Under the pieces are notes generated by a model, which was given only the letters and a program-made list of their open reading frames with translations, did not search any database and was not told where the DNA came from. Positions 1 to 3,886 of a stretch of DNA of 64,000 bases are shown one piece after another; the first letter of the stretch is position 1; each line of letters begins with the position of its first letter. The position numbers and the translations under genes were made by a program. Source of the stretch: an uncultured Draconibacterium sp. (GTDB lineage Bacteria; Bacteroidota; Bacteroidia; Bacteroidales; Prolixibacteraceae); NCBI GenBank assembly GCA_963677455.1, contig OY781971.1, positions 5,889,180 through 5,953,179 of the forward strand. Reading direction: 5' to 3'.

Positions 1-642
1 ACAAACTTGGCGGTGTACCAGGATAGTGTGCTGAAACATACTGCAGTAGTCCCGTTTGGAGGGCAGGTAATTACCAGCGACATAAAAGAAGGTTGCTCGA
101 TATTTTTGAAAAAAGCGGAGTTGTTAAAAGTGAAATATGGACAAGCGATGGGCGATTTTGCCGATGATCGTAAGGTCGTAACCATAGCCGGAGAGAATGG
201 TTGGGAGCCGCGAGATATTTCCTTTAAAAGTTTGGCGTATATTATTCAGGCACGCCTTGAGGAGATTGTTGAGTGTGTGAATGATCAGATCAGTCAGGCC
301 GGAATTGAAGACGGAGTAGGCTCGGGAGTTGTTATAACCGGCGGAACGAGTAACATGGATAACATTATCTCGTTGGTGAAGTTTAAAACGGCGCTGGATG
401 CACGGAAAGGACACTCGCTGATTTATCCTGCAACACGCAAAGAAGAATTTCAAAACCCCGAATACCTGACAGCCTTGGGCGCATTGAAAATGGTATTAAG
501 TTCCGGTGAAAATTTCACGGGAAATACGCATAATAAAAGAGTAAAACGGAAGGAAAGAGGCTTTGCACCATTAATTAAAAATGTGGTTCAGGGAGCCTTG
601 GACTTATTTGATACCGAGCAATCTGATTTAGAGTTAAATTAA
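1..642 (+). CDS. ftsA: Cell division protein FtsA, C-terminal part (5' truncated by window edge)
   Basis: Actin-fold motifs HTAVVPFGGQVITSDIKEGC, IIQARLEEI and GVVITGGTSN; directly upstream of ftsZ; frame is open back to position 1. Confidence 0.93.
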   Translation, partial: TNLAVYQDSVLKHTAVVPFGGQVITSDIKEGCSIFLKKAELLKVKYGQAMGDFADDRKVVTIAGENGWEPRDISFKSLAYIIQARLEEIVECVNDQISQAGIEDGVGSGVVITGGTSNMDNIISLVKFKTALDARKGHSLIYPATRKEEFQNPEYLTALGALKMVLSSGENFTGNTHNKRVKRKERGFAPLIKNVVQGALDLFDTEQSDLELN

Positions 643-653
643 AATAATACGAT

Positions 654-1946
654 ATGGCCGAAGAATTCGTAAACTTTCAATTTCCAAAAGCAACATCTTC
701 TATCATCAAAGTAATTGGTGCAGGAGGTGCAGGCTGCAATGCGGTCAATCACATGTACGAAGAAGGAATAGCAGGGGTTGACTACATTATTTGTAACACT
801 GACGCACAGGCGCTGGAAAACAGCAAAGTCCCAATTAAAATTCAGTTAGGAGTAACGCTTACTGAAGGACGCGGAGCTGGTAACAAACCCGAAATGGGTG
901 AACAAGCTGCCCGGGAAAATTACGAGGATCTGAAGAAAGTGTTGCAGGACAATACGAAAATGTTGTTTATTACAGCAGGAATGGGCGGTGGTACAGGTAC
1001 GGGATCGGCTCCGGTAATTGCCAGTTTGGCCCGCGAACTCGATATTCTTACTATTGCAGTGGTAACGATTCCGTCGCCTGCAGAGGGCAGAAAACGCTAC
1101 GAGCAGGCTCAGGAGGGCATAAACAAGCTAAAAGAATATGTGGATAGTATGTTGGTAATTAGCAACGACAGGCTGCATAACATTTATGGAGATCTTCCGG
1201 CAAGCCAGGCATTTAAAATGGCCGATAATATTGTAGCCACTGCGGTGAAAGGCGTAGCGGAAATTATAACGGTTCATGGCAATGTAAACATTGACTACAC
1301 GGATGTACACACTGTAATGCACAAGAGCGAAGTGTTTATTATGGGAACCGGTTTTTCTGTTGGCGAAGGCCGTGCAATGGAGGCTGTTCAGGCGGCACTC
1401 GAATCGCCACTTCTCGACAGCAACGATATTTTCGGAACAAAAAATATACTATTGAATATTATCTCCGGAAGCGAAGAAATTCGTATTGGCGAGATCGGCG
1501 AGATTATTGAAACGTTGCAGGAACAAGCTGGTCAGGAAGCCGATATTATTTGGGGTAACGGTTACGACGAGCGTCTTGGCGACAAAATTAGCGTTACCAT
1601 TTTGGCTACCGGTTTCGATACCAATCCAAATAGTATTTTACAACCCAAACAGGAAACAGAAAAATATGAGTTGAAAGAAGAGCCAACTCAACCAAAATAT
1701 GAAATAGACGAGGATCCGTTTGAGGATATGAACGAAGAGCCTCCCAAAAAGAAAGAAGAAGAGAAAGAAACGATTATTGTTTCTCCACCTCCAGTTGATC
1801 ATTCAGTACGGAAAAAGAACAAGAAAAAACGTGTGCGTAAAGAAAAAAGCAGAAAAGACGAACCTGTAACTGAATCGAATGTAGACAACTGGTTTTTTAA
1901 GAATTTTGGGAAGCTGTTTGATGATGATGATCAGAATATGGATTGA
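654..1946 (+). CDS. ftsZ: FtsZ paralog 1 (divergent, atypical C-terminal tail)
   Basis: GAGGAGCNA, CNTDAQAL, signature GMGGGTGTG, T7-loop variant NIDYTDV, VTILATGF; tail ends NWFFKNFGKLFDDDDQNMD. Confidence 0.92.
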   Translation: MAEEFVNFQFPKATSSIIKVIGAGGAGCNAVNHMYEEGIAGVDYIICNTDAQALENSKVPIKIQLGVTLTEGRGAGNKPEMGEQAARENYEDLKKVLQDNTKMLFITAGMGGGTGTGSAPVIASLARELDILTIAVVTIPSPAEGRKRYEQAQEGINKLKEYVDSMLVISNDRLHNIYGDLPASQAFKMADNIVATAVKGVAEIITVHGNVNIDYTDVHTVMHKSEVFIMGTGFSVGEGRAMEAVQAALESPLLDSNDIFGTKNILLNIISGSEEIRIGEIGEIIETLQEQAGQEADIIWGNGYDERLGDKISVTILATGFDTNPNSILQPKQETEKYELKEEPTQPKYEIDEDPFEDMNEEPPKKKEEEKETIIVSPPPVDHSVRKKNKKKRVRKEKSRKDEPVTESNVDNWFFKNFGKLFDDDDQNMD

Positions 1947-1974
1947 TGAGATGCAACCCTAAAATGGAAAGAAG

Positions 1975-3357
1975 ATGGATAAGTTGGCAGATTTTAAATT
2001 TGATGAATCTCCGGGAGCCGCAATAAAAATAGTAGGAGTTGGAGGCGGTGGTGGAAATGCGCTAAATCATATGTACACGCAGGGCATTCGCGATGTAGAT
2101 TATGTGATTTGTAACACCGATTCGCAGGCGATGGAAAACAGTCCTATTCGGTCCCGTGTTCCGCTTGGAGCACAGTTAACAGAAGGACGAGGTGCGGGTA
2201 ACAAACCTGAAGTCGGACGTCAGGCCGCCGAAGAAAATATTGAAGACGTAAAGAAAGCCCTCAAAGAAAATACAAAAATGGTATTTGTTACCGCCGGGAT
2301 GGGTGGTGGAACCGGAACCGGAGGAGCTCCGGTAATTGCAAAAGCTTGTCACGAGATGGGTTACCTTACTGTGGCTATCGTTACCATTCCTTTCAGAAAC
2401 GAAGGACGCCGGAGGGTGAAGCAGGCCTTTGACGGGATTAAAGAGTTGGAAAAATATGCTGATTCGTTACTGGTGATTAACAATGAACGTATTCGCGAAA
2501 TGTACGGCGATTTTGGTATTTCTGAGGCTTTTTCGCGAGCCGATAATATTTTGGCAACTGCAGCACGTGGAATAGCTGAAATTATAACTGTCCCCGGTTA
2601 TATTAATGTTGACTTTGCCGATGTGGAAACCGTCATGCGAAGAAGCGGAATGGCGGTGATGGGAACCGGAGTTGCTACCGGAGAAAACAGGGCAGAAGAA
2701 GCTGTGGAATCGGCACTGAACTCTCCATTGCTGAATAATAACGACATTCGTGGAGCCAGAAATGTACTCATTCATATAACATCGGGCGACAAAGAAGTAA
2801 CAATGGCTGAAGTTGGCCGGATTACTGACTATGTACAAAATAAAGCCGGTTTCGATGCTGATCTGATTTGGGGAAATGGTGTTGATGAAAACCTGGATGA
2901 AGAGCTATCGGTTACTGTAATTGCAACAGGTTTTACTTCGAGTATACTCTCTGGTATTAGCGGCGAGCAGCAACAAAATGTGAAAGTGGTTTTGGACTCA
3001 TCAGGTGCCGACATTAGCGAGCAAGAGCGAAAAACGGAGAATAGAAATGTTCGTCCCGGTCAGAAAACGATAGAGTTTGATATTCAGAAAGAGCGTGAAA
3101 GAGAAGATATGGAATTTGAGAATTTATATCCGAACACATCGCGCCAACGAACAAAGAAGGAAGACCATTTGAATATTAAAGATTTCTCTGCACTTAGCGA
3201 AGAAGATATTGATGATTTGGATAAAGTGCCGGCATACATGCGTCGAAAAATAAGGATGAATGATCCAAAATTTCAGAAAAATACTTCGCGATATACGGTG
3301 AATAAAAACAACCAGATTTCGGACAGAAATAGTTATTTACACAATAAAGTAGATTAA
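1975..3357 (+). CDS. ftsZ: FtsZ paralog 2 (canonical Bacteroidota type)
   Basis: GVGGGGGNA, GMGGGTGTG, T7 loop NVDFADV; tail VPAYMRR...NSYLHNKVD resembles the usual Bacteroidota FtsZ C-terminus. Confidence 0.96.
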   Translation: MDKLADFKFDESPGAAIKIVGVGGGGGNALNHMYTQGIRDVDYVICNTDSQAMENSPIRSRVPLGAQLTEGRGAGNKPEVGRQAAEENIEDVKKALKENTKMVFVTAGMGGGTGTGGAPVIAKACHEMGYLTVAIVTIPFRNEGRRRVKQAFDGIKELEKYADSLLVINNERIREMYGDFGISEAFSRADNILATAARGIAEIITVPGYINVDFADVETVMRRSGMAVMGTGVATGENRAEEAVESALNSPLLNNNDIRGARNVLIHITSGDKEVTMAEVGRITDYVQNKAGFDADLIWGNGVDENLDEELSVTVIATGFTSSILSGISGEQQQNVKVVLDSSGADISEQERKTENRNVRPGQKTIEFDIQKEREREDMEFENLYPNTSRQRTKKEDHLNIKDFSALSEEDIDDLDKVPAYMRRKIRMNDPKFQKNTSRYTVNKNNQISDRNSYLHNKVD

Positions 3358-3370
3358 AAAAATCAATGTT

Positions 3371-3820
3371 ATGGCATTATTCGATCAGATAAACAACGAC
3401 ATAAAAGAGGCGATGAAAGCCCGCGAAAAAGAAAAGCTTGAAGCCCTACGTGGAATAAAAAAAGTAATGCTTGAAGCCAAAACCGCACAAGGAGCCGGAG
3501 CAGAACTTGGCGACGATGAAGCGCTTAAAATCATTTCGAAGTTAGCAAAACAGGGTAGCGATGCTGCAGCCATTTACAAGGAACAAGGGCGCGACGACCT
3601 TTACGAACAGGAAATGACACAGGTGAAAATTTACGAAGCCTATCTTCCGGAGAAAATGTCGGACGAGGCACTAACAGAAGCAGTAAAAGCGATTATTGCT
3701 GAAACCGGTGCCAGCAGCATGAAAGACATGGGAAAGGTTATGGGGATTGCCAGTAAAAAACTTGCCGGACAGGCTGATGGGAAAGATATTTCAGCCAAAG
3801 TAAAATCATTACTTGCTTAA
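3371..3820 (+). CDS. GatB/YqeY domain protein
   Basis: DIKEAMKAREK...EAYLPEKMS...MKDMGKVMG...ADGKDIS pattern typical of YqeY. Confidence 0.92.
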   Translation: MALFDQINNDIKEAMKAREKEKLEALRGIKKVMLEAKTAQGAGAELGDDEALKIISKLAKQGSDAAAIYKEQGRDDLYEQEMTQVKIYEAYLPEKMSDEALTEAVKAIIAETGASSMKDMGKVMGIASKKLAGQADGKDISAKVKSLLA

Positions 3821-3861: not shown

Positions 3862-3886
3862 AAAGGCTTGTAAATCACAAGCCTTT
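3862..3886. terminator. Bidirectional intrinsic terminator
   Basis: AAAGGCTTGT-AAATC-ACAAGCCTTT hairpin between convergent genes. Confidence 0.75.

Follow-up and report, generated by a model that had tools for sequence, protein, structure and literature searches.

A tandem pair of FtsZ paralogues conserved across the family Prolixibacteraceae, one of them with an FtsA-like C-terminal tail

A central question in bacterial division is by what means the Z ring is fixed to the membrane and what part each tether plays in this. So far, tethers have been studied mostly with an engineered FtsZ that carries a membrane-targeting sequence (FtsZ-MTS) or in organisms with a single FtsZ. Osawa and Erickson reportedly engineered FtsZ-MTS by putting the amphipathic helix of MinD in place of the FtsA-binding peptide, which is said to give a self-tethering protein. 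We describe here a natural locus in which two FtsZ proteins with different C-terminal tails are encoded side by side. It lies in a stretch of 64,000 nucleotides (nt) from an uncultured Draconibacterium sp. (Bacteroidota, Bacteroidales, Prolixibacteraceae; assembly GCA_963677455.1, contig OY781971.1, positions 5,889,180 to 5,953,179 of the forward strand), which is called the window below and from whose first letter all positions are counted. Two intact open reading frames stand there in tandem on the forward strand directly after ftsA, namely ftsZ-A (654-1946, 430 aa) and ftsZ-B (1975-3357, 460 aa). We show here that the two genes belong to two old FtsZ lineages that are conserved side by side in the Prolixibacteraceae. 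FtsZ-B is a canonical FtsZ of the Bacteroidales type, whereas FtsZ-A is a diverged paralogue in which the canonical FtsA-binding C-terminal peptide is missing, and its conserved tail has the layout of the FtsA tail. While FtsZ-MTS is artificial, FtsZ-A would be its natural equivalent if this tail binds the membrane.

In chloroplasts, FtsZ1 and FtsZ2 are both GTPases that build one ring, and only FtsZ2 keeps the C-terminal peptide that binds the tether (TerBush and Osteryoung, J Cell Biol 2012; PMC3494859). The pair described here is likewise ancient and has the conserved peptide in one member. The chloroplast proteins differ in that they act in a eukaryotic organelle, are encoded by unlinked nuclear genes, use ARC6 as tether and have been shown to co-assemble, whereas the pair here is known from its genes. 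Two anciently diverged and separately conserved FtsZ lineages per genome, as found here, also occur in Haloferax with FtsZ1 and FtsZ2. In Odinarchaeota, OdinFtsZ1 binds the membrane by an N-terminal amphipathic helix, OdinFtsZ2 is recruited by SepF, and the two proteins co-pellet (Kumari et al., EMBO J 2025; PMC12583498). By analogy, different tethers may be proposed for the two paralogues of the Prolixibacteraceae, although the Odinarchaeota proteins are archaeal, rely on an N-terminal helix and on the SepF adaptor instead of FtsA, are more distant from each other and are not encoded as a tandem in the cluster of genes for division and the cell wall (dcw). In Mycoplasma genitalium, a C-terminal amphipathic segment of FtsZ binds to liposomes as well as to the membrane of E. 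coli (Dutta et al., bioRxiv 10.1101/2023.08.29.555414). Like this protein, FtsZ-A is without the canonical FtsA-binding peptide and has a terminal segment instead, which is here a candidate anchor. However, M. genitalium FtsZ is the sole FtsZ of a wall-less, genome-reduced bacterium and its motif is unrelated in sequence, while FtsZ-A is encoded in a walled Gram-negative bacterium together with FtsA and a second, canonical FtsZ paralogue.

The bacterial FtsZ duplicates described are mostly truncated (PMC13732431). Agrobacterium FtsZ1 is located at midcell and forms co-polymers with the essential FtsZ (PMC13732431; bioRxiv 10.1101/412759), and this protein of the Hyphomicrobiales is, like FtsZ-A, a bacterial duplicate maintained since ancient times. 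The Hyphomicrobiales paralogues are, however, truncated, with neither linker nor tail, and lie away from the main ftsZ, whereas FtsZ-A is full-length, has a new conserved tail and is encoded in tandem with its partner. Closer in phylogeny is Segatella copri DSM 18205T, a member of the same order, whose two full-length ftsZ genes behaved as redundant under antisense oligonucleotide (ASO) knock-down (Cosi et al., bioRxiv 10.64898/2026.04.17.719208). We found no other experimental work on FtsZ duplicates of the phylum. The S. copri pair differs from the present case in that the duplication is confined to some strains or species, and neither an FtsA-like tail nor family-wide conservation is reported there. 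Our searches found no literature that links ftsZ with the Prolixibacteraceae or its genera, and surveys of FtsZ evolution and duplication do not mention the pair. Tandem FtsZ paralogues that are both full-length, occur family-wide in walled bacteria and include one with an FtsA-like tail are, as far as we found, unreported for the Prolixibacteraceae. Databases call both proteins simply 'cell division protein FtsZ', an annotation that is corrected here.

Two FtsZ lineages in the Prolixibacteraceae

The original prediction, made from the letters of the window, was that two full-length ftsZ paralogues stand 28 nt apart after ftsA and that both keep the GGGTGTG motif and the T7 residues, and this turned out to be correct in every detail. 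Against TIGR00065, the NCBIfam equivalog model for FtsZ with a curated cut-off of 295.2 bits, FtsZ-A scores 361.8 and FtsZ-B 365.5 bits, and both proteins contain the Pfam domains Tubulin (PF00091) and FtsZ_C (PF12327). They are encoded by the only two ftsZ genes of the complete genome (6.09 Mb, one contig). Their cores align without gaps over 319 aa at 56% identity, while the tails are unalignable. The best matches of FtsZ-A in the PDB are the FtsZ proteins of B. subtilis and S. aureus (E 1e-80, over residues 17-352), and the AlphaFold2 (AF2) model predicts its core with a predicted local distance difference test (pLDDT) score of about 85-95 and with the alternating pattern of strands and helices expected of FtsZ.

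The globular core of FtsZ-A (residues 14-322, 693-1619) holds the T1 loop GAGGAGCN, the T4 motif GMGGGTGTG, the T7 motif NVNIDYTDV and the T5 motif TIPSPAEG. T1 and T4, the latter with the tubulin signature GGGTGTG, are the nucleotide-binding motifs of FtsZ, and the T7 synergy loop (N-x-D-x-x-D) is required for GTP hydrolysis in the polymer. The T4 motif is invariant among 81 orthologues of each copy. So are the N/D/D residues of T7, which are N212, D214 and D217 in FtsZ-A and lie within N-V-D-F-A-D in FtsZ-B, whose T7 motif reads YINVDFADV. In the T1 loop of FtsZ-A, G22, G24, G25, G27, C28 and N29 are invariant among the A orthologues. The version GAGGAGCN seen in the window (720-743, residues 23-30) is a variant of the Maribellus clade with A26, present in 9 of 81 orthologues, and the family consensus of the A copies is GVGGGGCN. 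Archaeal FtsZ has alanine at the position that corresponds to A26, and for this reason we do not read the substitution as inactivating. Position 28 is Cys in all A copies, Gly in B and Ser in most single-copy relatives. At the level of sequence, these motifs support the view that FtsZ-A and FtsZ-B are both GTPase-competent and that neither gene is a pseudogene.

Besides these shared motifs, 26 core positions are fixed differently between the two copies. Among the changes derived in FtsZ-A is the loss of both aromatic residues of T5, which reads TIPSPAEG compared to T-x-P-F-x-F-E-G in most single-copy relatives, and further changes (H208, N210, V211, I213) flank the T7 loop. Each FtsZ subunit has two longitudinal faces, on which the T5 and T7 loops lie, and the changes in FtsZ-A could tune homo- versus hetero-polymerisation.

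The pair is found in 149 of 150 good-quality Prolixibacteraceae genomes from 32 genera, including all 24 other genomes of the genus, and we therefore reject an assembly artefact or a strain-specific duplication. In the window and in all 80 named loci the genes are adjacent and ftsZ-A stands upstream of ftsZ-B. The closest named relatives of FtsZ-A come from Maribellus sediminis, M. mangrovi and M. luteus, followed by Draconibacterium, Mariniphaga, Tangfeifania and Sunxiuqinia. The expectation that most bacteria have one ftsZ at this place holds for the surroundings of the family. Within the order, most of the 140 families have a single ftsZ and about 7 of them have tandem copies; outside the order, a second ftsZ match was seen in four of the approximately 196 Bacteroidota genomes sampled, and the others have one ftsZ. 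Besides the Prolixibacteraceae, the tandem families, as designated here, are f15, f19, f96 and f125, where the array has two genes, and f32 and f69, where it has three. The triple arrays of f32 and f69 (loci L096/L123 in G435, L104/L122 in G333 and L098/L119 in G241) consist of full-length genes throughout, two with differing basic/hydrophobic/acidic tails and the last with the canonical peptide. The four exceptional genomes outside the order (G552, G591, G602, G614) belong to genus g273 of family f155, in another class, and have two strong ftsZ matches each; other genomes of this genus have one ftsZ.

In a maximum-likelihood tree of 75 FtsZ sequences (LG+C20), the A copies of the Prolixibacteraceae form one clade (support 100/99) and the B copies another (100/98). 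Both clades have a congruent internal topology with respect to Maribellus, Draconibacterium, Mariniphaga, Tangfeifania and Sunxiuqinia. Because the A and B clades are separate and branch in the same way, it is firmly shown that the duplication predates the family, as the suggestion of an old duplication had it. The stem of the A clade is 0.74 long and that of the B clade 0.25, and in a reduced tree that omits long branches the values are 0.48 and 0.12. FtsZ-B falls into an unresolved backbone alongside single-copy Bacteroidales FtsZ, and FtsZ-A joins, with weak support (93/85), the first copies in the triple arrays of f32 and f69. The duplication may thus be older still and common to other families. 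A single clade of all A-type copies is not rejected by the approximately unbiased (AU) test (p = 0.32), and with this value, the weak grouping and the unresolved backbone the A-type copies of the Bacteroidales may go back to one origin or to several.

Both genes are under purifying selection. The median ratio of non-synonymous to synonymous substitution rates (dN/dS; pairwise Nei-Gojobori, orthologue pairs with dS < 1.2) is 0.020 for the core of FtsZ-A and 0.026 for that of FtsZ-B, and in the tails it is 0.145 and 0.060, respectively. Among the 309 core columns, 213 are conserved to at least 95% in the 81 A orthologues compared to 191 in the 81 B orthologues, and at 134 of the 309 the same residue is conserved in both copies. 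Based on the core dN/dS and the counts of conserved columns, FtsZ-A is constrained at least as much as FtsZ-B, and the idea that ftsZ-A is decaying or under relaxed selection is rejected. Of the findings that would have spoken against the original prediction, relaxed selection and confinement to a single assembly are thereby ruled out, by dN/dS and by the distribution. Its view that both proteins look GTPase-competent is supported at the level of sequence by the T1, T4 and T7 motifs together with the dN/dS values, and the specialised roles that it proposed are favoured by the 26 differently fixed core positions and by the separately conserved, differing tails.

The C-terminal tails of FtsZ-A and FtsZ-B

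The E. coli FtsZ peptide DIPAFLRK binds FtsA and ZipA; peptides of this type are typical of canonical FtsZ, although a protein can belong to the FtsZ family without one. The tail of FtsZ-B consists of the linker, the peptide DDLDKVPAYMRRK (residues 413-425, 3211-3249), some 30 further residues and the terminal motif NSYLHNKVD (3328-3354). Within DDLDKVPAYMRRK lies LDKVPAYMRRK, the canonical C-terminal peptide of the Bacteroidales, and from its homology with the E. coli peptide we infer that it is of the FtsA-binding type. The pattern [LM]E[NK][IV]PAY[KM]RR is present in all B orthologues and in most of the single-copy Bacteroidales FtsZ sampled, and is degenerate or absent in a few divergent ones. 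The terminal motif of FtsZ-B, with the general form NSYLHxKVD, likewise belongs to the tail of all B orthologues and is found across the Bacteroidales. As N-[SN]-[YF]-L-H-[DN]-x-V-D it follows about 30 residues after PAYKRR in most Bacteroidales FtsZ examined, namely in about a dozen of 18 single-copy sequences and in the last copy of four of the six other tandem families (window 3328-3354, L003-L011, L097-L108).

The tail of FtsZ-A is built differently. Its variable acidic linker (residues 323-385, 1620-1808) has a net charge of -10 over residues 323-384 and no consensus among orthologues, and AF2 predicts it as disordered, with pLDDT <50 and without secondary structure. It is followed by the polybasic run RKKNKKKRVRKEKSRK (residues 386-401, 1809-1856), which is found in all A orthologues and lies in a region of net charge +8 (residues 385-410), by the motif NVDNWFFKNFGKLF (residues 409-422, 1878-1919) and by the acidic end DDDDQNMD (residues 423-430, 1920-1943). 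The acidic end is present in all orthologues, in nearly all as a [DE]-rich stretch followed by Q. The motif, a candidate membrane-targeting sequence, has the consensus [VI]DNWF[FY]KNFG(LG)[KR]LF, followed by [DE]3-4Q, in 81 orthologues. In an alignment of 45 orthologues D411, W413, F414 and F422 are invariant, and N412, K416 and F418 are conserved to at least 90%. According to the orthologue alignments, a canonical FtsA-binding peptide is not conserved anywhere in the FtsZ-A tail. A possible cryptic peptide in the linker, EIDEDPFEDM, was rejected since it is not conserved among orthologues.

A search with the FtsZ-A tail in 5.8 billion protein clusters returned 52 proteins, of which 51 have FtsZ Pfam domains. 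The remaining one (P0001, JGI, 350 aa) has no Pfam hit and 98% identity to the FtsZ-A tail, and probably represents an ftsZ-A orthologue whose gene was called truncated or from a wrong start. Elsewhere in the Draconibacterium genome the motif does not occur. The hydrophobic moment of the 14-residue motif is 0.53, and that of the 11-mer FFKNFGKLFDD within the tail is 0.84, compared to 0.61 for the targeting sequence of E. coli FtsA and 0.41 for that of MinD in the same calculation. AF2 places a short helix at residues 411-418 with low confidence. The moment and helix values are compatible with a membrane-binding helix, although they fall short of proof.

The C-terminal amphipathic helix of FtsA is an established membrane-targeting sequence. 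In the window, the last about 35 residues of FtsA (nt ~535-639, forward strand) consist of the polybasic HNKRVKRKER, the amphipathic GFAPLIKNVVQGALDLF and the acidic DTEQSDLELN, and family-wide the FtsA tail is made up of a K/R run, FSPWLKGVVQGVLDYV and DDDEDVALN. The tails of FtsZ-A and of FtsA from the same genome thus have the same three parts in the same order, with a Trp at the start of the hydrophobic segment. When the last 38 residues of both proteins were compared as profiles (hhalign), they aligned end to end with a score of 21.4, which was reached by none of 300 column-shuffled FtsA profiles of the same composition (mean 8.1, maximum 17.9). The FtsZ-B tail scores 8.8 against the FtsA tail. 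A side observation concerns locus L079, from a long-read metagenome-assembled genome, where a frameshift error in the assembly is the probable reason why the FtsA tail reads ...KLSPGLIKLYRVFLIWLTTKMKMFH and departs from the family pattern that L081 and L083, its close relatives, show.

A comparable arrangement is seen in the six other tandem families. The last gene keeps a peptide of the PAYKRR type, in degenerate form (PAHKRT) in f15, and each upstream copy has at its end a basic run, then a short hydrophobic motif that closes with [LF]F, and then acidic residues. Examples are DNWFRRKFGNLFNED in f125, GGWVASLFDEKDD in f19, GWIQTTFDSLFDE and KMIKFFDDDVD in f32, and MQQLIDFFGG...DDVEM in f15. 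The upstream copy of f96 is an exception, since its basic run and amphipathic stretch lead into an ending that is longer and different. The FtsA tails encoded in the genomes of these six families fall into the same class as the A-type tails, as with KGWLSFFNDE in f19 and GKLKGLFG in f125.

Possible roles of the two proteins

We consider the following course of events. The genes ftsZ-A and ftsZ-B go back to a tandem duplication of ftsZ that took place long ago within the dcw cluster, and purifying selection maintains both, with products that would be GTP-binding, polymerisation-competent FtsZ. FtsZ-A and FtsZ-B may divide the membrane attachment of the Z ring between them. FtsZ-B would be the conservative copy that kept the canonical peptide and is tethered via FtsA. 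FtsZ-A would have lost its C-terminal peptide in a burst of change after the duplication and become neofunctionalised, in that an adaptor-binding peptide was exchanged for a direct anchor of the FtsA type in the inner membrane. Together, the two proteins would form one Z ring with two kinds of tether. That FtsZ-A anchors itself to the membrane and co-assembles with an FtsA-tethered FtsZ-B is, in our judgement, a proposal with an even chance of being right. How the tail came about is more doubtful. The gene ftsZ-A might have been made in one step if the junction of the duplication fused the ftsZ linker to the 3' end of ftsA, with the product ftsA - ftsZ (core, linker and FtsA membrane tail) - ftsZ (full). 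From such a junction it would follow that the copy with the FtsA-like tail always stands upstream and the canonical copy always last. This step is speculative and the evidence that bears on it is architectural. Such a self-anchoring FtsZ may be common to, or have evolved anew in, at least six further families of the Bacteroidales, among them ones with three ftsZ genes in a row. The complete account, in which a natural FtsZ-MTS originated by a one-step junction, was retained throughout the Prolixibacteraceae and is shared with or re-emerged in other families, we regard as possible but less likely than not.

Several observations weigh against membrane anchoring and co-assembly. The similarity of the FtsZ-A and FtsA profiles may mean just a common order of basic, hydrophobic and acidic segments. 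Furthermore, FtsA tails of the own lineage are no closer to the A-type tails than those of other lineages, and 193 of 720 permutations reach the observed sum. Because own-lineage scores are not above cross-lineage scores, the resemblance between A-type and FtsA tails is one at the level of class and not lineage by lineage; a lineage-specific resemblance, by repeated capture or gene conversion, is unsupported. The amphipathicity of the motif is moderate, with the moment of the 14-mer reached by 9% of shuffles, and for the family consensus with the GLG insertion the moment is 0.40 and is reached by 22%. The predicted helix at residues 411-418 is of low confidence (pLDDT below 50). An acidic end is odd beside a membrane anchor, though FtsA has one. 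The changes fixed in the T5 loop of FtsZ-A (F to S and F to A) and those beside T7 would fit separate polymers of FtsZ-A equally well. Finally, in S. copri, filamentation occurs only when both ftsZ mRNAs are targeted (bioRxiv 10.64898/2026.04.17.719208), an observation that speaks for redundancy.

Alternatively, the FtsZ-A tail might be a short linear motif by which a different, lineage-specific protein is recruited, for instance another Z-ring tether or a regulator, so that the paralogues would split protein-protein interactions instead of modes of membrane attachment. The residue-level conservation of D411, W413, F414 and F422 is above that usual for generic membrane-binding helices, the amphipathicity is statistically undistinctive, the GLG insertion of most orthologues disrupts the helical periodicity, and the acidic end is conserved. 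However, the motif is found in no other protein of the genome and all 51 Pfam-annotated tail matches are FtsZ, so that there is no sign of a docking motif common to other proteins and we reject this version of the idea. The A-type tails of other families moreover vary in sequence and keep their basic, hydrophobic-[LF]F and acidic character, so that a physico-chemical target, the membrane, fits better than a specific pocket, and the FtsA tail has the same layout. We consider a partner-binding tail unlikely, and it is the alternative to membrane anchoring to which we give most weight.

Two further explanations appear improbable to us, and to a similar degree. FtsZ-A and FtsZ-B might be redundant and kept for dosage or robustness, as suggested in S. 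copri, with the difference in tails of little consequence. Such a view draws on the fact that both copies look fully competent and appear to be co-transcribed, as well as on the knock-down phenotype mentioned above. Redundant duplicates would, however, not be expected to last in 149 of 150 genomes and 32 genera with dN/dS of about 0.02 for each copy, 26 core positions fixed differently and two differing tails that are each conserved separately. The A stem, in addition, is three to four times as long as the B stem, which indicates a functional shift. FtsZ-A might also have left cytokinesis altogether for a separate membrane-associated filament system, for example for the control of cell shape or length in these long, curved or filamentous rods, in a way comparable to CetZ of archaea or FtsZm of Magnetospirillum. 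The fixed remodelling of T5, where both aromatics are lost, and of the T7 flanks, on what is presumed to be the longitudinal interface, would be in line with this, as would the possession of an own tail. In every genome examined, however, ftsZ-A stands between ftsA and ftsZ-B in the dcw operon, its product still scores as an FtsZ equivalog, and 134 of 309 core positions are conserved identically in both copies, whereas CetZ and FtsZm, known paralogues outside division, are far more diverged or truncated.

If membrane anchoring by FtsZ-A holds, the Prolixibacteraceae would have kept an FtsA-dependent FtsZ beside a probably self-anchoring FtsZ throughout the evolution of the family. A tail that binds the membrane would make the pair a natural test of whether a direct tether suffices for ring assembly, of why both tethers are kept and of the co-polymerisation of two isotypes in a walled bacterium, as in chloroplasts. 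Since the family includes the cultured genera Draconibacterium, Maribellus, Mariniphaga and Tangfeifania, it would offer a culturable Gram-negative model with a Z ring of two subunits that differ in their tethers.

Gene order around the ftsZ pair

The window begins inside ftsA, of which the 3' part is present (1-642, forward strand; Pfam FtsA PF14450, TIGR01174) with the stop codon at 640-642. The start of ftsZ-A (TIGR00065, tree, AF2) lies 11 nt beyond it. The spacer between ftsZ-A and ftsZ-B measures 28 nt (1947-1974), and ftsZ-B, assigned by TIGR00065 and its placement in the B clade, is followed after 13 nt by a yqeY/GatB-like gene (3371-3820, forward strand; Pfam YqeY PF09424), probably the last of the transcription unit. 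A hairpin scan of the locus found no terminator-like site between ftsA, ftsZ-A, ftsZ-B and yqeY, including the 28 nt spacer, and because of this absence the four genes are likely co-transcribed. The first terminator-like hairpin after the four genes, a bidirectional one recognised by consensus match only, is at 3862-3886 on the forward strand. A sigma-70-type promoter scan was also made; its consensus is uninformative for Bacteroidota. A yqeY-like gene follows the ftsZ pair in genome G038 as well, and in the distant family f15 a yqeY/GatB-like gene likewise stands directly 3' of the last ftsZ (L126, 4067-4513). Since yqeY comes after the last ftsZ both in the window and in f15, the arrangement suggests a conserved ftsA-ftsZ(n)-yqeY unit in the Bacteroidales.

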